Source of the DNA: an uncultured Methanosarcinales archaeon | GTDB lineage: Archaea; Nanobdellota; Nanobdellia; Woesearchaeales; GW2011-AR4 | Assembly (NCBI GenBank): GCA_964469645.1 | Contig: CAYXZV010000003.1 | Coordinates: forward strand, 8,538 to 72,537 | Direction of reading: 5' to 3' | DNA: 64,000 nucleotides | Shown here: positions 1-14,086 of the stretch, in pieces | How the letters are laid out: every line of letters begins with the position of its first letter | Numbering within the stretch: position 1 is the first letter of the stretch | The notes under the pieces: model-generated | Seen by the model: the letters and a program-made list of their open reading frames with translations, nothing else | Told to the model about the DNA's origin: nothing | The model's database searches: none | Program-made: the position numbers and the translations under genes

Positions 1-488
1 GTATGTAATTTACTGTAATCCAAAAAAAGACAGAATGGTTGCTTATTTTTTATTTGTAACAAAATCTCTGAATGTCGTTTTACAAGATCGTCCTTAAACT
101 CATTATGAGATCTTACCTTATCAAATCCTTGAGTTGGGATTATACTCTCATAGATCAAATCACATTCCGTATGATATCCCTGTTCTTTGAAATACTGCGC
201 CAAAGTGAAGCACTTTTTTTTGTCAAAACTATAACTCTTGTAGTATCCATTGACCCCATTGTCATTTCCATTCATACCAGAAAATACTGCATGCAAAGAC
301 GCTATGGTATAAGGTGCATAAGTTATCAAATTAGGGAAAAACACGCTATCCTTTTTCAGTTCTTGGTAATAATCAACCTTAGATATAGCATCATACCTAG
401 CTCCGTCTATCATTATCATAATTATATTTGGTTTTTTCCCAGAAAATTTACTTGAAAGTTTTCCAAAGAATTTTGGTGCTTTAAACAT
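1..488 (-). CDS. Alkaline-phosphatase-superfamily (phosphodiesterase/sulfatase-like) protein, N-terminal part; the gene runs off the window edge
   Basis: Manual minus-strand translation from ATG at 488-486 gives MFKAPKFFGKLSSKFSGKKPNIIMIMIDGARYDAIS...APYTIASLHAVFSG. The IDGxRxD metal-binding motif and Thr/Ser-containing nucleophile loop are typical of the AP superfamily. It overlaps the stop of the upstream gene by 8 nt. It is absent from the ORF track because it has no stop inside the window. Confidence 0.5.
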   Translation of the reverse strand, partial: MFKAPKFFGKLSSKFSGKKPNIIMIMIDGARYDAISKVDYYQELKKDSVFFPNLITYAPYTIASLHAVFSGMNGNDNGVNGYYKSYSFDKKKCFTLAQYFKEQGYHTECDLIYESIIPTQGFDKVRSHNEFKDDLVKRHSEILLQIKNKQPFCLFLDYSKLH

Positions 489-1806
489 TTTTATTTTCCA
501 TATAACCGAGCTTTCTCAGCAATTTTTTTGATCTTTCTGTTAAATCTACATCCTCATCACCTTTTGAATGATTCATCCATTCAAATAATTTCCCCCTTAA
601 CTCTTTGGCCACTCCAAGCTCTTTGTTTATTAGGTTTACATTCTCCTTTGGGTCTTCTTTTAAATTATATAATTCATAGATGTCATTTTCTGGGTGGGGG
701 ATATAAATAAGCTTCCATTCGTTAGTTCTTATCATCCTCCACTTGCCTTTTATTCCAGGAAAAAATGTCCTGTTGTTTTGTTTAAACTCCATCTTCCCAT
801 TTTCTGCAAACAGGTATTTCCTATCATCTTCACCCTCATTTATTATAGGGACTAAGCTCTTTCCATCAACCTTTTCTATTAAAGGTATATCTAAAATGTC
901 TAAGATAGTAGGCATGATATCTATCGTCTGAACTTGAGTTTCTATTTTTTTTCCTTGTATCTTAGGGGCATGAATTATCAAAGGTATTCTTATTCCTTCT
1001 TCATATAAGCACAGACTATGCTGGAAAGAAAGGCCATGCTCTCCAAGACCCTCTCCATGATCTGCAGTTATAATAATCGAAGTTTTATCCTTTAATTTTA
1101 GTTCTTCGATGTATTTGATTATATAACTCACTTGCATATCTATAAACTTTATTAAGCCGTCATACTGGGCTATTGCGTTATGAACTTTCTCTTTCGGAAG
1201 ATTAATGTTAAAAACTATATCCCCCTTCTTGTCGCTCCAATCATCAAATACGCTTTCTCCTTTATAGCCGGGATTAAACATCTCATCAAAAGGTTTTGGT
1301 GGTTCATAAGGAGTATGCAAGTCGGCATAGTGCAGATATAGGAAGAATTTTTTATGCTTATTTTTTTTAATTTGGCTTTTTGCAAAATCAGTTAATTCTT
1401 CTGCCCTGGTTACTTCTTTCTTGTGAATTAATCTTTTTATTTTATTTTTTATTCTCCATTGCAATGAAGAAAACTCATCAAAACCTTTTTCAATTCCGCT
1501 ATCCATAGAATCTATATCGTAACCTATCGTCCTATAACCATGTGCTTGCAAAATTTCTGCTAAAGTTGTAATTTTTGGATTTAGTTTATGCCTAAGAATA
1601 AACCTAAGCCCATGTGAATGGGGGTATAAACCAGTCATCATTGAAGCTACGGAAGGTGTTGAACTAGGTATTGCAGTAATAGAATTAGTAAAAAAAGCAC
1701 TTTCATTTGCAATTCTATCAATATTTGGACTGGTATCCCTATTATAACCACTTTTTCCTAAATGGTCAAAACGTAATGCATCTACTACAATAAAGATAAC
1801 GTTCAT
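481..1806 (-). CDS. Sulfatase-family (AP superfamily) protein with a non-canonical active-site motif
   Basis: 441 aa. N-terminus IFIVVDALRFDHLG...SSTPSVASMMTG aligns to the sulfatase signature CxPSRxxxxTG, but with Cys replaced by Ser and Arg by Val. A C-terminal HGEGLGEHG metal-binding motif is present. Confidence 0.65.
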   Translation of the reverse strand: MNVIFIVVDALRFDHLGKSGYNRDTSPNIDRIANESAFFTNSITAIPSSTPSVASMMTGLYPHSHGLRFILRHKLNPKITTLAEILQAHGYRTIGYDIDSMDSGIEKGFDEFSSLQWRIKNKIKRLIHKKEVTRAEELTDFAKSQIKKNKHKKFFLYLHYADLHTPYEPPKPFDEMFNPGYKGESVFDDWSDKKGDIVFNINLPKEKVHNAIAQYDGLIKFIDMQVSYIIKYIEELKLKDKTSIIITADHGEGLGEHGLSFQHSLCLYEEGIRIPLIIHAPKIQGKKIETQVQTIDIMPTILDILDIPLIEKVDGKSLVPIINEGEDDRKYLFAENGKMEFKQNNRTFFPGIKGKWRMIRTNEWKLIYIPHPENDIYELYNLKEDPKENVNLINKELGVAKELRGKLFEWMNHSKGDEDVDLTERSKKLLRKLGYMENKNV

Positions 1807-1908
1807 TGTCGACTAATGGAACCATAATCAGTTTAAATACCTTTTTATGTTCATACTATATTCGATTTGAGAAAGGTTTAAATAAAAAAAGCCATTAAAA
1901 AATTCACT

Positions 1909-2778
1909 ATGACAGACAATAAAATCACCTATAAGGAGATTAAAGCAAAACAGGGAAAAAATTTGAAATCGATCTATTATAATATATACAGAAGGTTCTC
2001 CACACCCTTCACATATGTTTTTGTCAAACTAGGATTTTCTCCAAGTGCGGTATCTATATTAAATTTATTTCCTGCCTTAATTGGATACTTTTTTTTAGCT
2101 ACTGGAAATTATTTTTTGATGGGAATAGGGCTTTTATTTTTCATCCTATACAAAATATGGGATTGTTCAGATGGGGAAGTTGCAAGGATCCAGAATCCAA
2201 AAGCTATGGATCCAAAGCACAAAAAGGTAGAAGGGATGTATTTTGATGCAGTCGCACATTTCATAGAGCCAATTTTTTTTGGAGCTGGATTAGGTGTTGG
2301 GCTTTATAAGTTATACAACACCGAGATGTATATCACTTTTGGAATTTTTTTAGCGGTTATATTTACATTAGAGTATGCATTAAGAGAGTTGGTAAGATCT
2401 TACTTCAGGAAGGGCATTATAGAAAAAAAAATAAAATTGAAAAAAGAATTGAAATATATTCAAAAAGAATTGAATGGAAGAATGGTCAAAGGACATTCTT
2501 GGCAAGAACAAAATATCATCTTTAAAATATTCGGCTTTTATCCTCCTGGACTGATATACAGCAGGGAATATATTGATCCCATGCTGGTATTTGCTATTAT
2601 TATAGAATTTGTATCTGGCAAATTTATTAACATCCCATTCGATATATTTGGGCAGGCAATCGGCATATTATCAATATACCTTTTTGTTGTCGGTATTGTA
2701 AAACTAACAGGAATTATCAGCTTTATCACAAAAATGGTAAAGAATAAATACCTCACTAATTTTCTGAATGAATTATGA
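1909..2778 (+). CDS. CDP-alcohol phosphatidyltransferase family membrane protein
   Basis: 289 aa polytopic membrane protein. DCSDGEVAR...G...D...A matches the D-x2-DG-x2-AR...G-x3-D core of CDP-alcohol phosphatidyltransferases. It overlaps the next gene by 11 nt. Confidence 0.55.
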   Translation: MTDNKITYKEIKAKQGKNLKSIYYNIYRRFSTPFTYVFVKLGFSPSAVSILNLFPALIGYFFLATGNYFLMGIGLLFFILYKIWDCSDGEVARIQNPKAMDPKHKKVEGMYFDAVAHFIEPIFFGAGLGVGLYKLYNTEMYITFGIFLAVIFTLEYALRELVRSYFRKGIIEKKIKLKKELKYIQKELNGRMVKGHSWQEQNIIFKIFGFYPPGLIYSREYIDPMLVFAIIIEFVSGKFINIPFDIFGQAIGILSIYLFVVGIVKLTGIISFITKMVKNKYLTNFLNEL

Positions 2779-2812
2779 AGTTAGGACGATCTGCAAGATA
2801 AATTCAATAAAA

Positions 2813-3883
2813 ATGACATATTACCATGAAGCAGGACTGATAGACAGCACAGACGACATCCAGTTTAAAGTATATAGCAGCACACACCCTAAAGGATTTA
2901 TCATAGCAAAGCCTAAGTATGTTCCTGCAGATTTACTTTCTTTAACGGGACTGAAAAAAAGATTCTTATTCAGTAAATGTATGTTTCGGTTCAATTTATT
3001 CAACAAAAAAGAGGTAGTAGAAAAAAACCTGGATGCCATACGAAGCAAGTTCCCATATTATATCTATGAATGTAAAAAGCATCAAAACTGGTTTTTAGGC
3101 GTACCCGAGAAAAAGGTAAAGAAATTCTACGACACTAAGAAAGGCTTGCAAGAATTGCTTAAAGTTCCTGAGGAGGACCTAGATGATTACCTGAAAGCCG
3201 TGAGAAAATTGGTTGACATTCTTGTTGAAGCCGGAATTCCAACTGAAAATCTAGGAATAAGCCATTCAACTTTATTGGGAAACTACACTCCCGGAGAATC
3301 TGATATTGATATGCTAATTTTTGGGATGGATAATGGGTGGAAAGCAATCAAGCATCTGGAAAAATACAAAAATCCATCTCTAAAATGGAAATCAAAGGAA
3401 GACTGGGCTACATATTACCAAAAAAGAGTTGTATCTAAGGTGTACACAGAAGAGGAATATGTAGCAAACATGGTCAGGAAAAAAGATGACGGGTTCATTG
3501 ACGGCAATGTTTTCTCTTTGTTCTGTATTGAAAATAAGGATGAATCGTGGTATGATTGGGAAGCACAACATGAACCATTAGGAACAGTAAAGATAAATGC
3601 GAAGGTAAAGGATGCATATCATTCCATTGTAAGACCCGGATACTATGAACTTGAAGAAACAAAAATACTGGAAGGTCATGAAGATGTACCAATAAAGCGC
3701 ATTGTAACATGGGCAAGGCCTTTTAGCTTACAGGCAAAAGAAAATGAACGTATAGAAGCCTGCGGACTTCTGGAAAAAGTCAAGTCAAAAGAAGGTGAAT
3801 TTTATCAAGTGGTAATAGGATACTTTGATACTTACACAACTGACAGGGGTGAAAAAGAGTACTTAAAAGCTCTCATAAGCTAG
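2813..3883 (+). CDS. Pol-beta-superfamily nucleotidyltransferase-domain protein (paralog A), function unknown
   Basis: Central NTase motif LGISHSTLLGNYTPGESDIDMLIFG (G-x-x-x-G...[DE]hDh). A ~150-aa N-terminal domain (HPKGFIIAKPKYVPADL) precedes it. The start is moved to ATG 2813 (MTYYHEAG) because the alignment with the downstream paralog begins there; the track start is 2768. Confidence 0.5.
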   Translation: MTYYHEAGLIDSTDDIQFKVYSSTHPKGFIIAKPKYVPADLLSLTGLKKRFLFSKCMFRFNLFNKKEVVEKNLDAIRSKFPYYIYECKKHQNWFLGVPEKKVKKFYDTKKGLQELLKVPEEDLDDYLKAVRKLVDILVEAGIPTENLGISHSTLLGNYTPGESDIDMLIFGMDNGWKAIKHLEKYKNPSLKWKSKEDWATYYQKRVVSKVYTEEEYVANMVRKKDDGFIDGNVFSLFCIENKDESWYDWEAQHEPLGTVKINAKVKDAYHSIVRPGYYELEETKILEGHEDVPIKRIVTWARPFSLQAKENERIEACGLLEKVKSKEGEFYQVVIGYFDTYTTDRGEKEYLKALIS

Positions 3884-3884
3884 A

Positions 3885-4973
3885 ATGCACTACTATGAAT
3901 CATCTATGATCACAACCAAGGATGGGCTCATTTGTCAAGTTTATGGTAATGAACATCCCAAAGGTAGGATTTTGGTTAAACCAAAATATATCCCTACAGA
4001 CAAAATATCTAGCGATGCACTGCCCTATAGGTTTATTTCCGGAAGGAAAATGAATAGGTTAGATCTTTGGATAGATAAAGATAAACTTAAGGAGTACCTA
4101 ACTGCTTTTACAAAGGAATATCCTGATTATGTTTTTAAGAGTGAAGTTCATGATAAAAGTCCACTTTTTTTCGCTGTTCCTGAAGAAGATATCGAAAAGG
4201 CATATTCTCCCAATAAAGGTTTAGCCGAACTTATGAGTATTCCAATCAAGGATTTAGATGACCACCTAAGAGCACTAGTAGAATTTGTATCATTTCTTCT
4301 CAAGAGCGGTATCAAACTGAAAGATTTAGGCATTACATATTCGACATTGATGGGTCATTATTCCCCAAATATGTCCGATATAAACATTGTAGTATATGGC
4401 AAAGAAAAATTCTGGGAATTGATGAAATTTCTGGAGAAAAATAAAGATAAGGATCTAAAATGGAAAACTTACGAAGAATGGGAAAACTTCTACAAAAAAA
4501 GGAACAGGCATATGATACATAAAAAAGAGATATATATAGAGAATATGTATAGGAAAAAATCTGAAGGCTTCTTTAAAGATACCTTGTTTGTCATATTTGC
4601 GGTGGAGAATGAAGATGAAACATGGTTTAAATGGGGGGAAGAAGGATACAAGCAAGTAGGAGTAGCCAAATTTGAGGGTTTGGTTACTGACAACAAAAAC
4701 TCCGTTGTCAGACCCGGTTGTTATGAAATTTCAGATACAAAATTTGTTGATGGAGACGAATCATGCAGGAATCTGCAAATAAGCAAGATCGTATTCTATT
4801 CCAGAGATTATTGCATGCTTGCTTATCCAGATGAAAAGATTGAAGCTAGTGGAGTTATTGAGGAAGTTACTCCAAAATCAGGTGAGAGATATTACCGGTT
4901 AGTTATTGGGTACTTTGATTCTTATTTGACTGAAAGACGAGATGAAGAATACATAAAAGTTATTGAGGACTAA
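3885..4973 (+). CDS. Pol-beta-superfamily nucleotidyltransferase-domain protein (paralog B), possibly catalytically altered
   Basis: It shares the paralog-A architecture (MHYYESS...HPKGRILVKPKYIPTD; YSTLMGHYSPNMSDINIVVYG). The second Asp of the catalytic dyad is Asn (DIN instead of DID). It begins 1 nt after the paralog-A stop. Confidence 0.5.
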   Translation: MHYYESSMITTKDGLICQVYGNEHPKGRILVKPKYIPTDKISSDALPYRFISGRKMNRLDLWIDKDKLKEYLTAFTKEYPDYVFKSEVHDKSPLFFAVPEEDIEKAYSPNKGLAELMSIPIKDLDDHLRALVEFVSFLLKSGIKLKDLGITYSTLMGHYSPNMSDINIVVYGKEKFWELMKFLEKNKDKDLKWKTYEEWENFYKKRNRHMIHKKEIYIENMYRKKSEGFFKDTLFVIFAVENEDETWFKWGEEGYKQVGVAKFEGLVTDNKNSVVRPGCYEISDTKFVDGDESCRNLQISKIVFYSRDYCMLAYPDEKIEASGVIEEVTPKSGERYYRLVIGYFDSYLTERRDEEYIKVIED

Positions 4974-4974
4974 G

Positions 4975-5580
4975 ATGGAAGAAACTGATAAATTATTTGG
5001 AGAAGATGTAAGTTTTAAGGATAATTGTAATCTATGTAATGAACAGAAGTATGAAGTCGGAGAAAAAACGGAGTATGGAGTAATAATCTATAAAATTGGC
5101 AGTCAAAAAAATGGCTGGTTTGCTACTTTATCTCCTAAAACCGGTGGAAACGCTAAAGATTTTACAATACAACTAATGCCATTTTCTCATCTAACTCATT
5201 TTTCTCAAATTGAGTCGCACAAAGGATTAGCAGAAAGTTATGGGATTGCATTCTCCAAGCTATCCATGGCTATGACAAGAATTATGATTGAAAATGAAGG
5301 GTTGAAATCTACTACTAAAGAAAAAAAGTTATCAGTGCCAATAGCAACTTATGGGAAATCAACGACGTGGAAAGAAAAAAAAGAGCATTTGCACATTAAG
5401 ATTTTCCCGTTTAGAGGAAACATTGGCCAACCATACACGGTTGACAGCTCCTTTGGAAGGAAAGAAATATTTAAGGATAAAACAGGGGAGTTTGTGAAGA
5501 TGAACCCTGTCAAAAAAGTAATGATTGGGGAAGAAAGGTTTGAAAAGCTGGTAAAAGACCTTATATCTCTGTTAAAATGA
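4975..5580 (+). CDS. HIT-superfamily-like nucleotide hydrolase/transferase (divergent triad HLHIK)
   Basis: N-terminal CNLC zinc-knuckle-like motif, then WFATLSPKTGGNAKDFTIQLMP (Hint/Fhit-like nucleotide-binding strand), then C-terminal HLHIKIFP resembling the HxHxHxx histidine triad with the third His replaced by Lys. The track start 4963 is a TTG; ATG 4975 (MEETDK) is preferred. Confidence 0.4.
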   Translation: MEETDKLFGEDVSFKDNCNLCNEQKYEVGEKTEYGVIIYKIGSQKNGWFATLSPKTGGNAKDFTIQLMPFSHLTHFSQIESHKGLAESYGIAFSKLSMAMTRIMIENEGLKSTTKEKKLSVPIATYGKSTTWKEKKEHLHIKIFPFRGNIGQPYTVDSSFGRKEIFKDKTGEFVKMNPVKKVMIGEERFEKLVKDLISLLK

Positions 5581-6446
5581 TAGACTTGCAAAACCATACT
5601 GTGGCTTCTGATGGTGAACTAACTCCTGAAGAGCTTATCGACCTTGCTGTAGAAAAGAAATTAAGTGCAATTGCGATAACAGATCATGATTCTATAGCAT
5701 CTGTAGAAAAAGCAGTTGAATATTCTAAAGGCAAGGGTATAGAAGTGGTACCAGGAATAGAACTAAGCTGTGATGACCCTCTGTTTAGCTATGATAAGGT
5801 AGATGTTTTAGGTCTTTTTATAGATTTCAATAATCAGAAACTTATCGATTTGATAAAACACATAAACGACAAAAGGGAAGAGAATAAAAAATTAATAATT
5901 GAGAAGCTAAAAGGTCTTGGATATGAGGTAGAATATGAAGATGTCAAAAAAACTGTTGGTGGAACATTCGGAAGGCCGCATATTGCAAAATATCTTCTAA
6001 AGAAATATCCTGATAAATTCAGTTCTGTCAGGGATGTTTTTGATGAATTATTAGGAGTCGGGAAAAAGGCTTTTGTAGGCACTATAGGCAGAGTTTCAAT
6101 AAAAGATGGTATAAAAACAATACAAGAAGCAGGAGGGGTAGCTATTTTAGCACATCCTGGAGTCTATCCCAAGGAGGATTCTATCAAACTAATAGATTTT
6201 TTTGTGGAGAATGGTGGTGATGGAATGGAAACATATTACCCTTACCATATAATATGTCCTGAAAAGAATATTGATGAAAGTGGCAATCAAGATCTGATAA
6301 ATTTTTACAAAGGTATTGCAAAATCAAAGAAAATACTCGAGAGCGGCGGTAATGATCATCACGATAAGGGTAGAGCTACTATGGGCAAGGTAGCTGTACC
6401 AGAAAAGGTTTTGGAGAATCTAAAAAACAAAATACCGGTTTCTTAA
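5577..6446 (+). CDS. PHP-domain metal-dependent phosphoesterase
   Basis: LQNHTVASDGELTPEELIDLAVEKKLSAIAITDHDSIASV is the PHP (polymerase/histidinol-phosphatase) N-terminal His motif. ATGA start/stop overlap with the upstream gene. Confidence 0.7.
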   Translation: MIDLQNHTVASDGELTPEELIDLAVEKKLSAIAITDHDSIASVEKAVEYSKGKGIEVVPGIELSCDDPLFSYDKVDVLGLFIDFNNQKLIDLIKHINDKREENKKLIIEKLKGLGYEVEYEDVKKTVGGTFGRPHIAKYLLKKYPDKFSSVRDVFDELLGVGKKAFVGTIGRVSIKDGIKTIQEAGGVAILAHPGVYPKEDSIKLIDFFVENGGDGMETYYPYHIICPEKNIDESGNQDLINFYKGIAKSKKILESGGNDHHDKGRATMGKVAVPEKVLENLKNKIPVS

Positions 6447-6447
6447 A

Positions 6448-6981
6448 ATGGCAAAACAAGGATGGACTTTATGGTTTACAGGTCTGCATGGTTCTGGGAA
6501 ATCGACAATAGCTGAAAAACTTGTCAACATACTGAAGGGAAAAAACATTCAGGTAATCCTTCTCGATGGTGACGAAATGAGGAAAACAATATCAGCAGAC
6601 TTAGGCTATTCTAAAGAAGAGAGGAACGAACATATGAAACGTGTAGCGAACCTTTGCAAAGAAAAATCCCAGGAAGGGGCATTTACAATAGCTTCTGTAG
6701 CTTCTCCAACAGAACAATCCAGGGAATACGCAAGAAAAGTTTTGGATAAAATTCTCATAGTATATGTAAAATGCCCTTTGGAAGTATGCCAAAAAAGGGA
6801 TGTCAAGGGTCATTATAAAAAAGCCAAAGAAAATGAAAAGGGTTTTGAGAACTTTATGAAAATTTCTTCGAATTTTGAAGAGCCAAAGAATCCAGATATA
6901 GTGCTTGAAACAGACAAGGAAAGTGTGGATGAATCAGTAGACAATCTATTGAGTAAATTAAAGGAAAAAGGCATAGTTTAA
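6448..6981 (+). CDS. cysC: Adenylylsulfate (APS) kinase
   Basis: P-loop GWTLWFTGLHGSGKSTIA, LLDGDEMRKTISADLGYSKEERNEHMKRV, CPLEVCQKRDVKGHYKKA and FEEPKNPDIVLETD all match conserved APS-kinase blocks. Confidence 0.8.
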   Translation: MAKQGWTLWFTGLHGSGKSTIAEKLVNILKGKNIQVILLDGDEMRKTISADLGYSKEERNEHMKRVANLCKEKSQEGAFTIASVASPTEQSREYARKVLDKILIVYVKCPLEVCQKRDVKGHYKKAKENEKGFENFMKISSNFEEPKNPDIVLETDKESVDESVDNLLSKLKEKGIV

Positions 6982-7019
6982 TGTCAAAAAACACAAGGAA
7001 TTTAGAATCAGCAAGGCAA

Positions 7020-9053
7020 TTATGTCTTAAATATTACTGCTCCTTGGCTCTGGAATATCGGCCTGAATAATCCTGATTCTGCAAGCTCCTGTAGTTTAGT
7101 ATTAGTTTCATCTGCACCGTATTTCTGTGCATACCTTCCATCTATTACCAGATATTCATAATCCCTAGATTTTAGAAAAGAATGAATTTCTTCTGCTGTT
7201 TGATTTGCTCCTGTTGTCTTAAATTCCTTTATATCGTCGCACCAAAAACATATGAATTTGTCCATCCCTATTGTAGGGCCATCTACAACAAAGCTGAAAA
7301 CCTTAGTATTTGCGGGTATATTATCTCTAATCCACAAATATGCTCCAATCTCTTCTCCAGATGTCCAGAATCCTCCTGGTGGCCATATTGCCGTGTTTAC
7401 TGCTATTTTCTGCTGTGTTGAAGTAAAGTATACTCCTGTCAGCAAGAGTATTAATACAACGAGTTTGCCTATATTTCCAACAGATTTTCTTGTCAAGTGC
7501 ATTAGCGAAAAAGCACCTTCTGTTGCTAAAATACAGACTGGTATAGCAAGCACCATCCAGGACCTAAAAGGAGACAATTTGAACTGGAAAGGAGCTGCAT
7601 TGACTGCATAAAAAAGAAAAATGAACCAAGCAACAGTGATGATGAGGTATCGATCCTTAAAATCTTTAGTTGTAAAATTAGCAACAACCAAAACAGATAA
7701 TACAATGATGCTGAAAATTGAAATGATGAGCAGGAAGAGCTGGTCAGAAACAAAAACACTAAACGGTATATCTTGCTTTTCGCCATCAACCCACACGGCC
7801 TTAGTGTATGTAGAAAAGAATAAAAAAACCATAGCAGAGGTTAAAATAAAGAAAGAAGTCAGAATAATAATTTTGTTTTTCTTTAAAGAATCTTTATATT
7901 TAAAAAGAATATAAACCAAAGCAATAACAAGAAGTATAGACAAAACAATTCCAATGCCTATGGGATTATTTATAGCATTCTGCTTTTGTGCAAAAAAGAA
8001 ATCACTAAAGGTATAAACTCTATCTCCAGTACCACCTACACTTAATGCAGCAGCTCCAGTTCCTACTTGGATACCCAAACCTTTCAGAGTTCCAGAAAGA
8101 CTGTATTTCATAATCATAGGGATCCACCAAAATGCAAAAGAAAGAATTAGCCCAAAAATACCTGCAAGGGCATGATTAACTAATATTTTCTTTTCTAAGA
8201 TCATCTTTATCAAAGCATATGATACAAAAAGCAATCCAAAGTAGGTGCTATGAGTAGGAGATGAAGTTAAAGCCGCAACCATCACCAAGCCGGTTAAAAT
8301 CCACCATTTTTTATCATGTTTTATCCTCTCAAAAGCGTAAAAGACAACAAAATAGAGCGGAACTGACAGAGATATCGCCCATATGAAATGTGACATAAAA
8401 GCAGGAATAGAGAATAGGGCAAAAGCTGCAAATAACGCCTTGTTTCTGCTTCCACTGAATTCCTTAACAAAGAAATAAAAGAATATTACGCTTAAGGAGA
8501 CGATCAGTGCATTGAAGAATTTAAGAGTCCAGTAAATAGAATCGTTAGTTTGGTGCAATATACCCATTACAACGGCATACGCCGGCGGATAGGGAGTCAT
8601 ATACCTTATAGGCCTGGCTATATCAGAAAATGCATTCTTTTCTACAGAATAAAATTTTGCAGTCTGAGAATGCCCCCAAGGATCATCATCCTCCAAATAA
8701 GGGTAATTAAATGCACCAGTTCCATAAACATAAAAGCTGGCTGCAAAAATAGCCAGCATGCCAAAAATGCTTATGTCTGTCTTGGTTAGCTTAAAGGAAA
8801 AATAAAATTTACTATAGTTCCTAAACAAATAGTATGTTGGGTATATCAAACTCAATGCCAGGATTATCCTCCAATCAGCAGGTATCTTCATTATATTGAG
8901 AACAAGGGCCAAAAATGGCAGCAAAGCGAGGCCAAAACCAAATCTCATTAAATTCCTTTCAAGAAAGTTCTCAGAATTTTTTACAAATGAGGAAATAGTG
9001 AACCCTAATCCATAGCAATATACAAAGAATAACAAGATAGTGACCATGCTCAT
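7020..9053 (-). CDS. GT-C-fold polytopic membrane glycosyltransferase (ArnT/PMT/AglB-like) with a C-terminal soluble domain
   Basis: 677 aa, about 13 predicted TM segments, an acidic loop YLEDDDPWGH after the first TM hairpin, and a ~150-aa C-terminal extracytoplasmic domain. No WWDYG motif. Confidence 0.45.
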   Translation of the reverse strand: MSMVTILLFFVYCYGLGFTISSFVKNSENFLERNLMRFGFGLALLPFLALVLNIMKIPADWRIILALSLIYPTYYLFRNYSKFYFSFKLTKTDISIFGMLAIFAASFYVYGTGAFNYPYLEDDDPWGHSQTAKFYSVEKNAFSDIARPIRYMTPYPPAYAVVMGILHQTNDSIYWTLKFFNALIVSLSVIFFYFFVKEFSGSRNKALFAAFALFSIPAFMSHFIWAISLSVPLYFVVFYAFERIKHDKKWWILTGLVMVAALTSSPTHSTYFGLLFVSYALIKMILEKKILVNHALAGIFGLILSFAFWWIPMIMKYSLSGTLKGLGIQVGTGAAALSVGGTGDRVYTFSDFFFAQKQNAINNPIGIGIVLSILLVIALVYILFKYKDSLKKNKIIILTSFFILTSAMVFLFFSTYTKAVWVDGEKQDIPFSVFVSDQLFLLIISIFSIIVLSVLVVANFTTKDFKDRYLIITVAWFIFLFYAVNAAPFQFKLSPFRSWMVLAIPVCILATEGAFSLMHLTRKSVGNIGKLVVLILLLTGVYFTSTQQKIAVNTAIWPPGGFWTSGEEIGAYLWIRDNIPANTKVFSFVVDGPTIGMDKFICFWCDDIKEFKTTGANQTAEEIHSFLKSRDYEYLVIDGRYAQKYGADETNTKLQELAESGLFRPIFQSQGAVIFKT

Positions 9054-9074
9054 GATCTAAGCTAAAAAACTTTA

Positions 9075-9087
9075 TTTTAAAAAGGTT
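9075..9087 (-). promoter_or_regulatory. BRE/TATA box (AACCTTTTTAAAA on minus strand) for the GT-C gene, about 27 nt upstream of its start at 9053
   Basis: Same AACCTTTTTAAA motif as at 14015, 32504, 32682, 39682 and 61531. The spacing implies a leaderless transcript. Confidence 0.5.
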
Positions 9088-9110
9088 GTTGTTTTTAAAG
9101 TGAAATAGTA

Positions 9111-9147
9111 AATTAGAAACATATTTAAATTGATATCTGTTAGTTTT
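9111..9147 (+). promoter_or_regulatory. Repeated promoter element AATTAGAAACATATTTAAAT-N-GTTAGTTT upstream of the glycosyltransferase-like gene at 9176
   Basis: About 80% identical to 16921-16956, upstream of the GT2 gene at 16962. Contains TATA-like ATATTTAAA. Confidence 0.45.
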
Positions 9148-9175
9148 ACCTATACAAATTGTGGCATGATTTATA

Positions 9176-10255
9176 ATGAATAAAGGACGATTATTAATCA
9201 TAGCTGAAAAGGAACGAGAGGTATACCATAGATTTTCAGTTATATTAAATAAGCATATGACCGTTAATGAGTTTTATATAGTGCAGAATCCTGATAAGCC
9301 GCCATTTCTCTTATCACGATGGATAAAAGTAATTAAATACTTTAATGGGACTTTTAGAACTCTCAACCCAGATAAAGTGTTGGTTTGCGGTGGCTCTTTA
9401 ATTTCAGTATGGCTTTTTGTTTTTTTGATTAAGTTGTTTAAGAAGAAAACAGAAATAATCTTTTTTAGATACGATATTGAAAATTTTAGGTTATTTCCAA
9501 AAGGTTTTATAAAAAAATTTATACGTTACTTAATTATTGTTTTAGAAAAATTTTGCTTTCTTTCATCACATAAATTCATTCATAAAGGCTTTTATGATGA
9601 ATTAAAGATGTTAAAATTCTATAATAAAATTAAAAATAAGCCACATTACTTGTTCAGAGACATGCTGGATAAATCATTAATCCAGAAATTTGGCCCAAGT
9701 AAAAAGCTGTCAAAAAGTGATAAAGAGATTCATGTCGTTTATGTTGGAGGTCTTAATGTTGATGATGGTCCCGATATGCCGTCTTTTTGGAAATTCATTC
9801 CGAAAATTACTGATCAGAAAATTCACTTCCATGTTTATTCAAGGCAACCTCGACATATTATAAACAAACTTAAAGAAACAGAAAAAAATAACAAATATTT
9901 TCATTATGAAGGTTTCGTGAACCATAGAGAGCTTATTAAAAAAATGGGGATGTATGACTTTTCAATAAGCATTGTTGATTACAAAAACACCCCCGTCGCT
10001 TGGCAAAAAAGTGCTTTTGGATTTAAGATTCTTGACTCAATAATGGCCGGAATTTTATATATAGCTCCGAACAATCTTACTGCTACTGCACAATTTTTAG
10101 AAAAGAACAAAGTAGGGATGTGTTATGATTATTCAAATTGGTATAAAATTAAACATCATATATCTAAGATTAAAGTGAAAAGTTATCAGAAAAATTTTGA
10201 AAAGTACATCTCCAACTATAATGAAAATGGGCTGATTGATTTTATACTAAACTAA
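9176..10255 (+). CDS. Putative glycosyltransferase (GT-B-like C-terminal domain), function uncertain
   Basis: 359 aa. The C-terminal half (HVVYVGGLNV...FKILDSIMAGILYIAPNN) resembles the GT4-type nucleotide-sugar-binding domain. It sits inside the glycan island. Confidence 0.3.
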   Translation: MNKGRLLIIAEKEREVYHRFSVILNKHMTVNEFYIVQNPDKPPFLLSRWIKVIKYFNGTFRTLNPDKVLVCGGSLISVWLFVFLIKLFKKKTEIIFFRYDIENFRLFPKGFIKKFIRYLIIVLEKFCFLSSHKFIHKGFYDELKMLKFYNKIKNKPHYLFRDMLDKSLIQKFGPSKKLSKSDKEIHVVYVGGLNVDDGPDMPSFWKFIPKITDQKIHFHVYSRQPRHIINKLKETEKNNKYFHYEGFVNHRELIKKMGMYDFSISIVDYKNTPVAWQKSAFGFKILDSIMAGILYIAPNNLTATAQFLEKNKVGMCYDYSNWYKIKHHISKIKVKSYQKNFEKYISNYNENGLIDFILN

Positions 10256-10275
10256 AAAGATCATTCAAGATAACA

Positions 10276-11220
10276 TTACAAACCTTTTGCGTCCAATTGT
10301 TTCTTAATTCGTTGCAAACCTTCGTCAATGTTTATTTTCGGTTCCCATTTGTTTGCTTCTTTTATAGCGCTTATATCTAATAAAAAACTTAAATCGTCCT
10401 TATTTACAGTTTCGAGTACAACGATCTCTTTTTGTGGATTAAAAAGTTTCTTAATCTTCTCAGCAAGGTTCTTTAATGATATTTTTTCATCACCACCTAT
10501 ATTAAATGTCTTACCATAACACGATTCATTTTTGATGGTAAGTAAAAGAACATCAATAAAATCATCGATATAAACAAAATCCTTATATCTATCAGGATCG
10601 TGATCGATTTTAATTGTATCGTGTAACGCTGAATAAATGAGCGCGTCAACAGTGTTTTTTTTAAGAGGAACACATTCAATACAACCATATACATTGCTTA
10701 TTCTCAAGCAGATTGTCTTCAATCCAAAACGTTGGTTAAAGAACTGGTAATACTTTTCTGACATTAGCTTAGCAAAACCGTAAACACTTGTCAGTTCTAA
10801 CATCGCATCTTCTTTAATGGGGAGTTTACAGTTTTTTGAATATTCAAGCCTAGAGCCAAAGTGAACTAAAATCGTATTCAAATCGTTTTCTTGACAGTAT
10901 TGAAGGAGTTTGAAGTTAAGTGTGACAATGTTTTGTTGGTAAGTTAAGTCATTTTTTTCAGCATGAATTAAATTTAATATAATATCTGTTTTATTTAGAT
11001 GCTCCTGTAAAGGCTCAAAATCTACAAGTGGGTCAAACGAGACAACATTTGCTATCTTATAGAGTTCAGGGTACTTAGCATGTTTATCTGATCCGTGCTC
11101 CGCATTTCTAGCAACAACAGTAACTTGTGCTCCGAGATTAACTAGTCTTTTAACAAGACTAGGTCCAACGTAACCAAAACCACCCAAAATTAAAATTTGC
11201 TTATCTACATAATATTTCAT
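10276..11220 (-). CDS. NAD-dependent epimerase/dehydratase (extended SDR)
   Basis: N-terminal Rossmann motif ILILGGFGYVGPSLVKRL. 314 aa. Confidence 0.65.
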   Translation of the reverse strand: MKYYVDKQILILGGFGYVGPSLVKRLVNLGAQVTVVARNAEHGSDKHAKYPELYKIANVVSFDPLVDFEPLQEHLNKTDIILNLIHAEKNDLTYQQNIVTLNFKLLQYCQENDLNTILVHFGSRLEYSKNCKLPIKEDAMLELTSVYGFAKLMSEKYYQFFNQRFGLKTICLRISNVYGCIECVPLKKNTVDALIYSALHDTIKIDHDPDRYKDFVYIDDFIDVLLLTIKNESCYGKTFNIGGDEKISLKNLAEKIKKLFNPQKEIVVLETVNKDDLSFLLDISAIKEANKWEPKINIDEGLQRIKKQLDAKGL

Positions 11221-11273
11221 CGTCTGTCAGAACACTAACCAACTTATAAAGATATCCATTTGTATGTCTAAAC

Positions 11274-12281
11274 TTATCCTAAACCAAGCTGCTTCATTCG
11301 TTTTATATTATGGTATATTGGATTGTTTACACCATCTTTGATTAAACCAGCATTATAGGCCTCAATGATACTTTTAATTCCATCTTCCACTGTAAACTTA
11401 GGTTTAAACCCAAGAACCTTTGCAATTTTATCTGAGTTAATATTGAAAGATCTGTTATCGTTGCTTTCAAAATACTCAAAAGTAATATCAGGGCCGCATA
11501 TTTTCTTAACAAGATTTGCTATTTCAGTTATAGAAAGATTCTGATATCCTGCATTGAACGACTGATGGTTAATTTTTTCCTTAGGCGCTTTCAGCATGAG
11601 CCCATATACTCTAACTATATCCTTGATATTGATATTTGGACGACACTGTTTTCCGCCAAATATTTTAATTTTTTTATTAACTAATGCGTTTATAGTGAGT
11701 ATATTCACAACTACATCCAATCTTAGCCTAGTAGCATAACCACATACAGTGGCAGACCTCACTGCCACCCATTCAAAATCATCCTTCAAGTTTCGCAATA
11801 CTTTCTCGCATTCAGCCTTGTACTTGGAATAATCTGTAATTGGCTCAAGAGAATCTTCCTCAACAACCTTTTCCTTATCCTTAATCCCATATACACTTGA
11901 TGTGCTTGCATACACCAGTCTTTTGATCTTATTGACTTTCATAGCTTCAACAACGTTAAAGAAAGCGTCATAATTTATTGATTTTCCAAGTTCTGGGTTC
12001 ATCTCAAAGCTAGGATCATTAGAAATGCACGCGAGATGTATCATCGCATCACATCCTTTAGAAGCTTCCACAAGTTTTTCTTTGTCTCTTATATCTCCTT
12101 TAATCTCAATCAATTTAGAATCGTTAATGTCCTTAAAAACCTCTCCGTAAGTGTAAAGGTCATAAACCACAACTTCATAACCTTTCTTTAGTAGATCAGG
12201 AACTAATGCAGATCCTACATAACCTGCGCCTCCTGTAATAAGTACTTTCTTTATTCCATTGCTATTAATTTCCATTTTCAT
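11274..12281 (-). CDS. NAD-dependent nucleotide-sugar epimerase/dehydratase (extended SDR)
   Basis: [29 protein letters not shown]. 335 aa. It overlaps the next gene by 17 nt. Confidence 0.7.
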   Translation of the reverse strand: MKMEINSNGIKKVLITGGAGYVGSALVPDLLKKGYEVVVYDLYTYGEVFKDINDSKLIEIKGDIRDKEKLVEASKGCDAMIHLACISNDPSFEMNPELGKSINYDAFFNVVEAMKVNKIKRLVYASTSSVYGIKDKEKVVEEDSLEPITDYSKYKAECEKVLRNLKDDFEWVAVRSATVCGYATRLRLDVVVNILTINALVNKKIKIFGGKQCRPNINIKDIVRVYGLMLKAPKEKINHQSFNAGYQNLSITEIANLVKKICGPDITFEYFESNDNRSFNINSDKIAKVLGFKPKFTVEDGIKSIIEAYNAGLIKDGVNNPIYHNIKRMKQLGLG

Positions 12282-13266
12282 CTCCTAAATACTTAAACCA
12301 TTTTTCGGTTGCTTTTTTGATGGATTTTTTATCCCAAAGAGGAGCATCTTTCCAATAATCAATATTATCCAGCATGATCTTTACACCCTCTTCAAAAGAA
12401 ACTTCAGGCTTCCATTTAAGAATTTTACTGGCTTTTGTAATATCTGCATGCGTAATATCTGGCTCCCCTGGTCTTTTAGGAATTTGTACTGTAGGACCTC
12501 CAATTAGTTTTGCAAGGTAATTGACTGATTGAGGGTTTTGAGTTCCAATATTTATTATCTCTCCATTTACATCAGACTCAGCAGCAATTAAATTTGCTTT
12601 AGTCGTATCAGTTACATAGATAAAATCCCGAGTCTGAGTGCCGTCACCAACAATAGTTAGCGGCTTATTTTCGAGCTTTTGCTTTAAGAACACCTTAAAG
12701 ACTGCTCCATAAGTGTTATTAGTCCTTGCCCTTGTACCATAGACATTAAAGTACCTCAAAGAGATGACTGGAAGTTTATAAAGTTTATTCCAAAATAATG
12801 CATACTGTTCTGAAATATACTTTGTAAAGGCATAAGGATATTGTGGCCTTACCTCTGCCGTTTCCGGAGTAGGGTATTTGTCTGGTATCCCATAACATGA
12901 AGATGATGCGCTAAATACTAATTTTTTTATGTTATGCTTTCTGGAAGCTTCCAAAACTCTTATAGTTCCAGTAACATTTGCATTATGGTATTTGGTGGGC
13001 TCTTCAATTGAAGGCACAATATCGGCCAATGCTGCCATATGAAAAACATAATCAGTATCTTTGAATAAAGAGTCATCGAATTCTTTAGAAATATCAATCT
13101 CATAAAATTTATATTTGGGATCGTCTTTAAAGATATCCACATTATCTTTCTGTCCATTGGAAAAATCATCAATACCTGTAACCTCATAGCCCTTATCCAG
13201 CAGAAGCTCTGCCATATGACTTCCAATGAATCCTGCACAACCTGTCACAATAGCTTTTTTATCCAT
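12265..13266 (-). CDS. NAD-dependent nucleotide-sugar epimerase/dehydratase (UDP-glucose 4-epimerase / ADP-heptose 6-epimerase-like)
   Basis: AIVTGCAGFIGSHMAELLLDKGYEVTGIDDFSNG. 333 aa. It lies next to the heptose genes, so it is a candidate HldD. Confidence 0.7.
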   Translation of the reverse strand: MDKKAIVTGCAGFIGSHMAELLLDKGYEVTGIDDFSNGQKDNVDIFKDDPKYKFYEIDISKEFDDSLFKDTDYVFHMAALADIVPSIEEPTKYHNANVTGTIRVLEASRKHNIKKLVFSASSSCYGIPDKYPTPETAEVRPQYPYAFTKYISEQYALFWNKLYKLPVISLRYFNVYGTRARTNNTYGAVFKVFLKQKLENKPLTIVGDGTQTRDFIYVTDTTKANLIAAESDVNGEIINIGTQNPQSVNYLAKLIGGPTVQIPKRPGEPDITHADITKASKILKWKPEVSFEEGVKIMLDNIDYWKDAPLWDKKSIKKATEKWFKYLGDENGN

Positions 13267-13393
13267 GCCCTAATTGGGTAATTATGTCCATTCTTAAATC
13301 TTTTCATAAACCAGGATGTATCAATAATTCATAAAGTATTTAAAAGCTCCAGAGTTTTTTACACTGGAAAATGCATCAGAATAAGAGAGTGCA

Positions 13394-14005: not shown

Positions 14006-14014
14006 TAAAATAAT

Positions 14015-14026
14015 AACCTTTTTAAA
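14015..14026 (+). promoter_or_regulatory. BRE/TATA box AACCTTTTTAAA upstream of the transaldolase gene
   Basis: Recurrent motif; ATG at 14087. Confidence 0.4.
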
Positions 14027-14086
14027 TCAATAGACGTTGTTTTTATAGATGACTAACTTAAAAATAAAAATTTATCTTGGGGAAAA

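Follow-up and report, generated by a model that had tools for sequence, protein, structure and literature searches.

A possible sulfation cassette of DPANN archaea in which two unclassified enzyme families apparently stand in for the usual sulfate-activating enzyme

Introduction

The PAPS pathway of bacteria and eukaryotes relies on a sulfate-activating enzyme (ATP sulfurylase), either Sat or CysDN, together with the APS kinase CysC and the pAp phosphatase CysQ, and its genes are clustered with those of sulfotransferases in the NodPQ/NodH and mycobacterial sulfation loci. The branch of HIT enzymes that comprises GalT and Ap4A phosphorylase also includes the ADP-sulfurylases, or APS:phosphate adenylyltransferases, and APS is degraded by known HIT enzymes.

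Here, we describe a six-gene operon of a tiny marine DPANN archaeon, found in a window (the whole stretch of DNA analyzed) of 64 kb. With a chance that we place a little short of even, this operon represents a single copy of a DPANN-wide cassette for the sulfation of surface glycans that supplies PAPS and recycles pAp, and in which a pair of nucleotidyltransferases (NTases) and a HIT-fold protein activate sulfate. Two unclassified enzyme families apparently take the place of the usual sulfate-activating enzyme.

Results

The ORF listing of the window gives six ORFs at 1909-6981, all arranged head-to-tail on the forward strand (Table 1). The junctions 3883/3885, 4973/4975 and 6446/6448 are 1-nt gaps and genes 4 and 5 overlap by 4 nt (5580/5577), an architecture that supports co-expression of the six genes as proposed in a previous sequence-only reading. 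That reading had described every junction as an overlap or a 1-nt gap, which holds elsewhere but probably not between genes 1 and 2: the family consensus of gene 2 starts with the residues encoded from 2813 (MTYYHE...), a start also used by one public gene call (L003), and the two genes are therefore probably 34 nt apart instead of overlapping by 11 nt. Public gene calls likewise start gene 4 at the ATG at 4975. Archaeal TATA-like boxes reading TTTAAATA are found 25-32 nt 5' of two divergent starts, one (1877-1884) preceding gene 1 and the other (1832-1839) preceding a sulfatase-like gene, suggesting a putative divergent promoter.

Table 1 Features of the operon and its immediate surroundings, with positions in the window.
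Feature	Position	Strand	Length	Remarks
Second AP-superfamily sulfatase-like gene, 3' part	1..488	-		Cut by window start; full copy on L002
AP-superfamily sulfatase-like gene, divergent from operon	481..1806	-	441 aa	PF00884 E 1.2e-55
Putative divergent promoter region	1832..1884	.		Two TTTAAATA TATA-like boxes; promoter role predicted
Gene 1, divergent CDP-alcohol phosphatidyltransferase-like polytopic membrane protein	1909..2778	+	289 aa	ATG at 1909; sub-cutoff NCBIfam match, partial motif
Gene 2, NTase-A, likely catalytic Pol-beta nucleotidyltransferase subunit	2813..3883	+	356 aa	ORF 2768-3883 (371 aa), internal ATG 2813; G-x-S...S-D-I-D kept
Gene 3, NTase-B, probably non-catalytic partner	3885..4973	+	362 aa	S-D-I-N, second catalytic Asp replaced by Asn
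Gene 4, HIT-fold protein	4975..5580	+	201 aa	ORF 4963-5580 from TTG; N-terminal CxxC, H-x-H-x-K replacing histidine triad
Gene 5, PHP phosphoesterase, RNase AM / 3',5'-bisphosphonucleotide phosphatase type	5577..6446	+	289 aa	PF02811 E 3.6e-13
Gene 6, adenylyl-sulfate (APS) kinase CysC	6448..6981	+	177 aa	TIGR00455, PF01583
Polytopic membrane protein, convergent	7020..9053	-	677 aa	Homologs in 10 loci

NTase-A, NTase-B and the HIT protein, together with a phosphohydrolase, were found to recur in 58 species-level DPANN loci, spanning MAGs of Woesearchaeota, Nanoarchaeota, Iainarchaeum and Aenigmatarchaeota. The gene order is the same in these 58 independent loci, and the arrangement is thus not due to chance. 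When members were counted over the 49 loci of at least 9 kb, the phosphohydrolase was present in 45, the HIT protein in 44 and AP-superfamily genes in 29. CysC was encoded within 10 kb in only 23 loci, as against the near-constant phosphohydrolase, an unexpected pattern if the operon simply synthesized PAPS, and one that counts against the cassette reading. Three types of fusion occur across the loci (NTase-B with HIT, AP-superfamily phosphodiesterase (PDE) with NTase-A, and PHP with CysC), the first two of which argue for a single complex. The PDE is fused to NTase-A in L043, L048 and L049, and in L032 and L054 the fusion also contains a middle domain with weak HD similarity; a PDE-HD-NTase-A fusion in L034 is suggested by an identically sized ORF.

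The surroundings of the module are dominated by glycan biosynthesis, and in the window itself glycan genes form an island that extends to approximately 32 kb. The most common neighbors are epimerases (30 loci), GT4 enzymes (27), Wzx flippases (27) and NTP-transferases (17), while canonical sulfotransferases (PF00685, PF13469, PF03567) are encoded beside it in nine separate loci (L001, L018, L020, L022, L036, L050, L058, L059 and L061); none were identified in the window. The sulfo-glycan pathway suggested from the sequence alone is thereby strengthened. Two AP-superfamily genes had correctly been placed upstream of the operon, the second being whole (383 aa; PF00884, SGSH_C) on a longer public contig, L002, directly upstream of the 441-aa one. 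The 441-aa protein has no signal peptide and a degenerate formylglycine motif (S-T-P-S-V for C/S-x-P-x-R). The convergent 677-aa membrane protein, which had no Pfam or NCBIfam match, may be a glycan-handling partner.

Gene 6 can be assigned as an APS kinase, as previously proposed: it scored 177 bits against TIGR00455, above the equivalog-domain cutoff of 138.7, matched PF01583 (E 1e-45) and shares 35% sequence identity with E. coli CysC, to which its P-loop, LDGD and KG-lid motifs could be aligned. Weak matches to KTI12 and PSTK were also found. The assignment of gene 5 as a PHP phosphoesterase was likewise upheld by PF02811; its NCBIfam matches to RNase RNM (E 2.5e-43, 148 vs cutoff 375) and nucleoside bisphosphate phosphatase (E 1.5e-38, 132 vs cutoff 400) fall far below the equivalog cutoffs, and it therefore represents a divergent COG0613 subfamily. 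Gene 5 is likely a pAp 3'-phosphatase. PHP and CysC form a single fusion protein in L019 and L024, and in the PHP-less loci L020 and L058 a CysQ-type Inositol_P domain is fused to CysC instead, in agreement with the link to PAPS/pAp chemistry drawn earlier. Other PHP-less loci encode an HD domain that resembles SpoT-type HD_4 weakly, with scores below threshold, and that either stands alone or forms part of a PDE-HD-NTase-A fusion protein. These swaps look like non-orthologous displacement by alternative phosphohydrolases, and the PHP and CysQ alternatives point to removal of a nucleotide 3'-phosphate.

The two NTases share 39% sequence identity and a Pol-beta fold, bearing out their description as Pol-beta paralogs. 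NTase-A retains the GS...DxD motif, with each of the two Asp residues conserved in 90% or more of 47 orthologs, and is likely the catalytic subunit, whereas NTase-B reads DxN and is probably non-catalytic since its second catalytic Asp is replaced. Neither NTase matched Pfam, NCBIfam or PDB sequences. The subunits are 59-81% identical among the homologs listed from several DPANN lineages. In NTase-B, the NTase domain lies between an N-terminal beta domain and an OB fold at the C terminus, and the structure search found no full-length PDB analogue of this three-domain architecture. The best Foldseek match of the NTase domain was the aminoglycoside NTase ANT(2''), while the OB fold resembles the nucleic-acid-binding OB folds of SSB, RPA and aaRS anticodon-binding domains, a likeness that speaks against the cassette reading. 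So do distant NTase-OB homologs in Caldarchaeales, Bathyarchaeia, Korarchaeota and Methanococcus voltae, as none of the cases examined was linked to sulfur genes.

The OB fold would suit RNA end modification or repair, or nucleotide second-messenger signaling, with the NTases acting on RNA 3' ends, PHP being an exonuclease similar to RNase AM, gene 6 phosphorylating polynucleotides or tRNA, and the HIT protein serving as a de-adenylase. RNase RNM as the top PHP match, the weak KTI12 and PSTK matches and the Caldarchaeales homologs, which adjoin SRP54, Pus10 and a ribosomal protein gene, fit such a role. We nevertheless consider it very improbable, and the RNA-modification alternative of the sequence-only reading is weakened, as the kinase passes the APS-kinase cutoff with its motifs aligned to those of CysC, PHP is interchangeable with CysQ, sulfotransferases and glycan genes make up the great majority of the neighbors, none of which is an RNA-processing gene, and no defense or RNA-repair family was matched in the Pfam and NCBIfam scans.

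The HIT protein had no Pfam, NCBIfam or PDB sequence match, and its hhalign comparison with E. coli GalT was not significant. The earlier HIT-like assignment instead gained support from structure comparison, which placed the fold nearest to Ap4A phosphorylase; the model is moderately confident (pLDDT 71), a further point against the cassette reading. Neither the NTases nor the HIT protein falls into a characterized housekeeping family, and their linkage is conserved, both of which run counter to the refutation that the sequence-only reading had set for itself. The Ap4A phosphorylase-like fold, and the degradation of APS by HIT enzymes, would also agree with a module that does not synthesize APS but controls or salvages the adenine nucleotides in the sulfation cycle. 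The HIT protein would then be an APS or PAPS phosphorylase or hydrolase (the ADP-sulfurylase direction), with pAp and AMP recycling left to the NTases and phosphohydrolase, and the small cell would be protected against the toxicity of pAp or APS. Although the phosphohydrolase is the most constant partner and HD, PHP and CysQ alternate at one position, we regard this as improbable: a degradative role accounts neither for two highly conserved NTase subunits nor for the complex-forming fusions, and leaves the pathway without an APS source.

Neither CysD nor CysN (tblastn) nor a Sat signature motif (motif check) turned up in approximately 1 Mb of loci and the 64-kb window, and the 120 nearest CysC homologs included no Sat fusion. 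As the search covered loci rather than whole genomes, a canonical Sat or CysDN may be encoded elsewhere.

Gene 1 scored 28.9 bits against the NCBIfam archaetidylinositol-phosphate synthase (cutoff 180), had no Pfam match, PF01066 included, and carries the motif DxxDGxxAR-x17-GxxxDxxxH; the earlier CDP-alcohol phosphatidyltransferase call thus stands for a divergent relative, but not for a canonical member. Relatives of this small membrane protein are encoded after CysC or PHP in 16 of the 49 loci, and gene 1 is the least conserved member. The lipid-headgroup step once proposed is therefore speculative. The surroundings indicate polysaccharide or glycan rather than lipid genes.

An elsewhere-encoded canonical sulfurylase could provide APS to a PAPS-linked cassette whose NTases and HIT protein make or transfer another group activated by a nucleotide (e.g. 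an adenylylated sugar or phospho-alcohol), to be installed on a glycan or lipid carrier by the AP-superfamily enzyme, the CDP-alcohol-transferase-like protein, or both. Pol-beta NTases normally adenylylate hydroxyl groups, and the ANT(2'') match, the PDE fusions, the frequent AP-superfamily genes and the 16 loci with gene 1 relatives all agree with this, as do a PEP mutase (phosphonate) gene cluster that includes cytidylyltransferases and lies a short way upstream on the contig, and distant Bathyarchaeia relatives near cofactor-biosynthesis-like genes (ATP-grasp, CitG, CofE-like). We find it unlikely, although less so than the preceding alternatives: the invariant partners are a nucleotide 3'-phosphatase, often with CysC and sulfotransferases, and not a sugar or alcohol pathway, no consistent acceptor gene was found, the PEP mutase cluster was seen on this contig only (the sole contig searched for it), and no sulfurylase was seen in any locus.

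Discussion

In the proposed sulfation cassette, sitting inside a surface-glycan biosynthesis island, three steps appear fairly secure: CysC would phosphorylate APS to PAPS, sulfotransferases encoded beside the module in other genomes would use PAPS, and the PHP enzyme would convert the by-product pAp to AMP by removing its 3'-phosphate. We infer that catalytic NTase-A, NTase-B with its degenerate active site and OB fold, and the HIT protein form a heteromeric complex, which the AP-superfamily (alkaline-phosphatase) enzyme would join in many genomes, and which would convert ATP and sulfate to APS by AMP transfer. This step was assigned to the complex because no other candidate gene is nearby; the complex would work like an ATP sulfurylase while being unrelated to Sat or CysDN. 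By analogy with GalT, Ap4A phosphorylase and ADP-sulfurylase enzymes, the HIT subunit may use His140 to carry the adenylyl group or to exchange it. Gene 1 would be an optional downstream membrane component acting on a lipid-linked acceptor. Against the cassette reading, three or four proteins would serve one nucleotidyl transfer, and the AP-superfamily partner has no assigned part in the scheme.

Compared to the known PAPS pathway, the cassette shares a bona fide CysC, a pAp-phosphatase-type enzyme (PHP in this operon and CysQ in some sister loci), sulfotransferases adjacent in sister loci and surrounding glycan biosynthesis genes. It differs in that none of the loci yielded a Sat or CysDN homolog, two OB-fold Pol-beta NTase paralogs and a HIT-fold protein being present instead, in a COG0613 phosphatase tied to the module more tightly than the kinase, and in additional, sometimes fused, AP-superfamily partners.

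The individual proteins also depart from their closest relatives. Like other Pol-beta small-molecule nucleotidyltransferases (e.g. aminoglycoside ANT), the module NTases have the Pol-beta fold and, in NTase-A, the hG[GS]...DxD signature, and pairing of a catalytic with a degenerate paralog is a known theme of the superfamily; however, no Pfam model covers their domain combination, and sulfate, the acceptor proposed here, is without precedent for the fold. The CxxC and conserved histidines of gene 4 are reminiscent of the GalT zinc site, and its H-x-H core likely contains the nucleotidyl-accepting histidine, as in the GalT/Ap4A phosphorylase/ADP-sulfurylase branch. Gene 4 differs from that branch by lacking detectable sequence similarity, by H-x-H-x-K in place of H-x-H-x-H or H-x-H-x-Q, by a long helical insertion in approximately 200 aa, and by the frequent NTase fusions of its family. 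Gene 5 finds its best NCBIfam matches, over the full length, in COG0613 enzymes (Cv1693 3',5'-bisphosphonucleotide phosphatase, E. coli YciV/RNase AM), and its genomic role is consistent with pAp hydrolysis; its scores are well below their equivalog cutoffs and its substrate is predicted. Finally, gene 1 resembles CDP-alcohol phosphatidyltransferases such as archaetidylinositol-phosphate synthase in being a small polytopic membrane protein with the first signature half, DxxDGxxAR, but has a spacer of 17 residues instead of 8 and His for the last Asp (DxxNGxxAR...E...H in sister loci), and is co-located with CysC, not with lipid genes.

Conservation and layout of the six-gene operon

The ORF listing of the window shows six successive reading frames on the plus strand between 1909 and 6981, encoding a CDP-alcohol-transferase-like membrane protein (gene 1), two paralogous nucleotidyltransferases (NTase-A and NTase-B, genes 2 and 3), a HIT-fold protein (gene 4), a PHP phosphoesterase (gene 5) and the APS kinase CysC (gene 6). 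Genes 2 to 6 follow one another with 1-nt gaps (3883/3885, 4973/4975, 6446/6448) or an ATGA overlap (5580/5577), and ATG 4975 is most likely the start of the HIT gene. Gene 2 has two candidate starts, of which ATG 2813 (MTYYHE...) is the start of the ortholog consensus and of one public gene call (L003, a public contig of the same locus); it gives a 34-nt spacer behind gene 1 as opposed to an 11-nt overlap. The near-abutting operon described in the sequence-only reading thus stands for the six frames and the junctions of genes 2 to 6, but not, with start 2813, for that between genes 1 and 2. The start codons at 1806 (-) and 1909 (+), which diverge, are each preceded at 25–32 nt by a TTTAAATA box, a pair that would be consistent with a divergent archaeal promoter region, and the gene downstream of the operon is convergent on the opposite strand. 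The G+C content of the window is ~34%, and ARAGORN found no tRNA gene over the 64 kb. Marine metagenome contigs (recorded as marine or Tara, at most 88 kb read) carry the identical locus, and close homologs all came from Woesearchaeota or Nanoarchaeota MAGs, which marks the host as a DPANN archaeon of marine origin. The 127-aa ORF at the left end of the window is almost certainly spurious.

A scan at one genome per species yielded 61 loci and exact look-ups a further 4; excluding duplicates and the distant Terraquivivens loci, 58 DPANN-type loci were retained (numbered L001 onwards). Loci were annotated using ORFs and phmmer, and the counts refer to the 49 loci for which 9 kb or more of sequence was available. 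The tandem NTase-A/NTase-B pair was present in every locus, HIT in 44/49, a phosphohydrolase right after HIT in 45/49, an AP-superfamily gene (PF01663 or PF00884) in 29/49, CysC in 23/49 and the gene 1-type membrane protein in 16/49. All six genes in the order of the window were also found in L007, L009–L012, L041 and L044, and the gene linkage noticed in the window is thus recurrent across DPANN, both as the complete set and as sub-blocks. NTase-B has 314 homolog clusters (59–81% identity as listed) and the HIT-like protein at least 330, with the named ones all being from DPANN archaea. Fusions of NTase-B with HIT (570–580 aa), of an AP-superfamily phosphodiesterase (PDE) with NTase-A (~820–850 aa) and of PDE, HD and NTase-A (~1090–1105 aa) tie the parts of the module together.

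In five distinct loci (L005, L033, L040, L049, L056), a PQ-loop/MtN3 (semiSWEET-like) membrane protein of ~89 aa is encoded directly upstream of NTase-A, and could be a small transporter tied to the module. One of these, L056 (JAGXBC010000002.1, 226 kb, labelled Patescibacteria group bacterium and binned as CPR), encodes sulfatase, PDE, NTase-A and NTase-B with ~50% identity to the window, to be explained by misbinning or by transfer across domains from one ultra-small lineage to another.

Coordinates of features in the window and in public loci with homologs
Sequence	Feature	Position	Strand	Remarks
Window	127-aa ORF	72-455	+	Antisense to truncated sulfatase-like gene
Window	AP-superfamily gene	481-1806	-	PF00884, E 1e-55
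Window	Six-gene operon	1909-6981	+
Window	Polytopic membrane protein, 677 aa	7020-9053	-	No Pfam/NCBIfam match
Window	359-aa protein	9176-10255	+	No Pfam/NCBIfam match
Window	Carbamoyltransferase and two AlgX/SGNH-like proteins	20861-22621, 22599-23810, 26855-27910
Window	Archaeal-type 5S rRNA, lone	32546-32661	-	One in window
L002 (public contig of the same locus)	Phosphonate-biosynthesis cluster	190-4314		Contig reaches ~5 kb past the window's left end
L005	PQ-loop/MtN3 protein	8541-8810
L011	Second PHP paralog	13169-14044		After CysC
L012	Second PHP paralog	13172-14047		After CysC
L015	Second PHP paralog	8570-9445		After CysC
L041	Second PHP paralog	4031-4900		After CysC
L018 (Woesearchaeota)	HIT-like gene in tandem duplicate	7303-8554		186 and 201 aa
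L064 (Candidatus Terraquivivens)	Tandem NTase-OB paralogs, then third Pol-beta protein	8970-12635		333, 347 and 550 aa
L071 (Bathyarchaeia/Korarchaeota)	Tandem Pol-beta genes, distant homologs	2934-8601
L072 (Bathyarchaeia/Korarchaeota)	Tandem Pol-beta genes, distant homologs	1-8982
L073 (Bathyarchaeia/Korarchaeota)	Tandem Pol-beta genes, distant homologs	3806-8630

APS kinase and the phosphohydrolase position

Gene 6 scored 177 bits against TIGR00455 (curated cutoff 138.7) and 155.9 bits against PF01583 (cutoff 21.1, E 1e-45), and shares 35% identity with E. coli CysC (BLASTP), with the P-loop GxxGxGKST, LDGD(N/E)xR and the KGxYKKA lid all aligning; its product is confidently predicted to be an APS kinase (adenylyl-sulfate kinase, CysC). 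Gene 5 contains a PHP domain (PF02811, 50.6 bits, cutoff 26.4), and its best full-length matches were RNase RNM/AM and the PHP-type 3',5'-bisphosphonucleotide phosphatase. The scores are below equivalog level (132.5 vs 400 for NF041577, 148.3 vs 375 for NF047791), and the protein is accordingly annotated by similarity as a relative of the PHP-type phosphatase/RNase AM (COG0613) family rather than an equivalog. Both PHP and CysC are ordinary members of their families.

The enzyme at the phosphohydrolase position varies between loci, PHP being the usual one. PHP is fused to CysC in L019 and L024 (469 aa), and in two PHP-less loci (L020, L058) CysC is instead fused to a CysQ-type Inositol_P domain, of which L058 has a further standalone copy. 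Elsewhere the position holds an HD domain, standalone in L018, L021, L022 and L059 and fused in L032 and L054 (confirmed) and L034 (inferred); its SpoT-type HD_4 similarity is sub-threshold and too weak to add anything to the argument for a 3'-phosphatase. Characterized members of PHP (COG0613) and CysQ strip the 3'-phosphoryl group of nucleoside 3',5'-bisphosphates, and the function common to the occupants would most simply be conversion of pAp to AMP. The PHP–CysC fusions and the replacement of PHP by CysQ–CysC are indirect evidence of pAp hydrolysis by PHP. A role of PHP as a pyrophosphatase was also considered, and is less likely than pAp phosphatase activity because CysQ-type domains substitute for it. 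Only some half of the loci have CysC near the module, but the phosphatase is almost universal and sometimes fused between PDE and NTase-A, which hints that removal of the 3'-phosphate is closer to the NTase reaction than mere clean-up.

Four loci encode a second PHP paralog after CysC (L011, L012, L015, L041). It outscores the module PHP on the pAp phosphatase and RNase RNM models, and the two proteins may have different substrates.

The NTase pair and the HIT-like protein

The NTases are 39% identical to each other and have no match in Pfam, NCBIfam or, by sequence, the PDB; comparison of the NTases and the HIT-like protein with PDB sequences gave nothing credible using either single sequences or profiles. 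The AlphaFold model of gene 3 (pLDDT 92) comprises an N-terminal beta domain, a nucleotidyltransferase domain with the Pol-beta fold and a C-terminal OB fold, and Foldseek comparison of the whole model to the PDB gave nothing at E<=1e-3. Among the 47 pairs of orthologs, G-x-[ST]...S-D-I-D is retained in the A family, and NTase-A matches the catalytic signature hG[GS]-x(9-13)-D-h-[DE]-h (as G-I-S-H-S...S-D-I-D) in at least 90% of orthologs. The B family instead reads S-D-I-N, the second catalytic Asp being gone in at least 90% of members, and gene 3 lacks the Pol-beta catalytic signature. The two thus resemble a catalytic subunit with a degenerate partner.

Gene 4 has the HIT alpha+beta fold, with C18-x-x-C21, H72, H75 and H138-L-H140-I-K142 being invariant. 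Neither the histidine triad H-phi-H-phi-H-phi-phi nor the GalT-branch H-x-H-x-Q is present, the third position being Lys, and the motif is a modified triad. No match to Pfam HIT, GalT, DcpS or NCBIfam was found, and alignment of the HIT profile to E. coli GalT (hhalign) was not significant (probability 0.6), with both CxxC motifs paired. The HIT-like gene is duplicated in tandem in L018. The profile and structure comparisons suggested by the sequence-only reading thus placed the NTases and the HIT-like protein in no Pfam or NCBIfam family, and no model or characterized member exists for the NTase-OB or the HIT-like family.

An exhaustive profile search returned 833 cluster representatives of the NTase-OB family at E<1e-3, of which 489 passed E<1e-10, with members outside DPANN in Bathyarchaeia, Korarchaeota, Caldarchaeales and Methanococcus voltae. 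In Bathyarchaeia and Korarchaeota the genes neighbor H4MPT C1-pathway and CODH/ACS genes, ATP-grasp ligases, CitG and a CofE-like ligase, which suggests a role in cofactor biosynthesis for the wider family; the distant homologs in L071–L073 are tandem Pol-beta genes. The Caldarchaeales context includes SRP54 and Pus10, and that in M. voltae is unrelated. The Terraquivivens locus L064 has a housekeeping context (SRP54, Pus10, DUF655, L10e) and no HIT, PHP or CysC. As these three were found at none of the non-DPANN loci examined, the DPANN clade appears to be a specialized subfamily.

Sulfotransferases and glycan context

Nine distinct loci (L001, L018, L020, L022, L036, L050, L058, L059, L061) have canonical PAPS-dependent sulfotransferases, from three Pfam families, adjoining the module. 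Sugar epimerases/dehydratases (30 loci) are the most frequent neighbors, followed by GT4 glycosyltransferases and Wzx-type flippases (27 each) and sugar-nucleotide NTP-transferases (17), with GT2, capsule-polymerase-like proteins, UDP-glucose dehydrogenase, DegT aminotransferase and NeuB also common. Within the window, too, a glycan island extends to ~32 kb (GT2, GT4, carbamoyltransferase, AlgX-like acyltransferases, deacetylase, Wzx, UDP-Glc dehydrogenase). The variable phosphohydrolase position, the sulfotransferases and the glycan neighbors all converge on the PAPS cycle. With CysC, the exchange of PHP for CysQ, the adjoining sulfotransferases and recurrence in 58 loci, the proposal of a novel sulfo/PAPS-linked pathway is partly supported: the novelty and the sulfo/PAPS link are upheld, and the module is conserved; of its "lipid or glycan" headgroup, the neighboring genes favor glycan and not lipid. 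RNA modification had been offered as an alternative. The OB fold resembles the nucleic-acid-binding type and gene 5 is related to RNase AM; set beside the sulfotransferase and glycan genes, this reading is unlikely.

The 677-aa membrane protein, a possible polymerase, ligase or transferase of glycans, has homologs in 10 module loci. The carbamoyltransferase and AlgX/SGNH-like genes suggest possible glycan carbamoylation and O-acetylation in the same island, and a carbamoyltransferase also adjoins the module in L058.

The AP-superfamily gene upstream of the operon reads S-T-P-S-V in translation, with no Arg, in place of the formylglycine motif C/S-x-P-x-R, and its product is probably an AP-superfamily enzyme rather than a classical sulfatase. 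Directly upstream of the two sulfatase-like genes, L002 carries a phosphonate-biosynthesis cluster (cytidylyltransferase–PEP mutase fusion, second cytidylyltransferase, TPP-dependent decarboxylase, Fe-alcohol dehydrogenase, NTP-transferase), and phosphonate and sulfate decorations may therefore occur in the same glycan island.

Gene 1 encodes a polytopic membrane protein, and its earlier assignment as a CDP-alcohol phosphatidyltransferase did not hold up well. It has no match to PF01066 at E<0.01, scores 28.9 bits against NF040950 (cutoff 180), and in place of D-x2-D-G-x2-A-R-x8-G-x3-D-x3-D carries D-x2-D-G-x2-A-R-x17-G-x3-D-x3-H, indicating at most a weak kinship. A bolder possibility is that gene 1-type proteins use APS/PAPS as an "NDP-X" analogue and act as membrane-embedded sulfotransferases.

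Candidates for the sulfate-activation step

A PAPS cycle requires APS synthesis. Across ~1 Mb of loci and the 64-kb window, no Sat signature motif was found (by motif check alone, in loci rather than whole genomes) and tblastn with E. coli CysD/CysN returned no homolog. None of the six operon proteins had a profile match to ATP sulfurylase (Sat PF01747, CysD/CysN), and a fusion to Sat was absent from all 120 of the closest CysC relatives. A canonical sulfurylase may be encoded elsewhere in the module-carrying genomes; within the cassette, NTase-A/B and HIT are the only conserved nucleotide-handling proteins left unassigned. ATP sulfurylase transfers AMP onto an oxyanion with release of PPi, chemistry that could in principle be feasible for a Pol-beta NTase. 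HIT enzymes of the GalT/Ap4A-phosphorylase branch swap AMP between phosphate and sulfate acceptors via a His-AMP intermediate, as do ADP-sulfurylase (APS:phosphate adenylyltransferase) and yeast Apa1/2, which form Ap4A from APS. With no sulfurylase found, no other candidate and plausible chemistry, we propose by elimination that the NTase pair and HIT, together with the AP-superfamily partner where present, would act as a non-homologous functional analogue of ATP sulfurylase.

That NTase-A, NTase-B and HIT, joined in many lineages by an AP-superfamily enzyme, form a third sulfate-adenylylating class unrelated to Sat and CysDN and the sole APS/PAPS route in DPANN is a tentative proposal that we regard as somewhat improbable, and a categorically new sulfate-activating enzyme in the cassette is likewise a realistic prospect, if less likely than not. 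To our knowledge, just two enzyme solutions to sulfate activation, a central reaction, exist, Sat and CysDN; a third, unrelated one would, if true, be a textbook-level addition, and would correct metabolic reconstructions in which DPANN archaea count as incapable of PAPS synthesis. The fusions, displacements and conservation make the hypothesis directly testable. Whatever the NTase/HIT step, two sizeable protein families without models are defined here, and genome-reduced, host-dependent DPANN archaea appear to keep a dedicated cell-surface sulfation cassette, which bears on host attachment and recognition.

Comparison with known sulfation loci

The literature searched on DPANN PAPS pathways and non-canonical ATP sulfurylases held no description of the module, which we rate as a PAPS sulfation pathway partly built from new enzyme families. 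Since no homology to Sat or CysDN was detected, the NTase pair and HIT may work like ATP sulfurylase rather than belong to its families, and the cassette as a whole works like the classical sulfation loci comprising Sat or CysDN, CysC, CysQ and a sulfotransferase.
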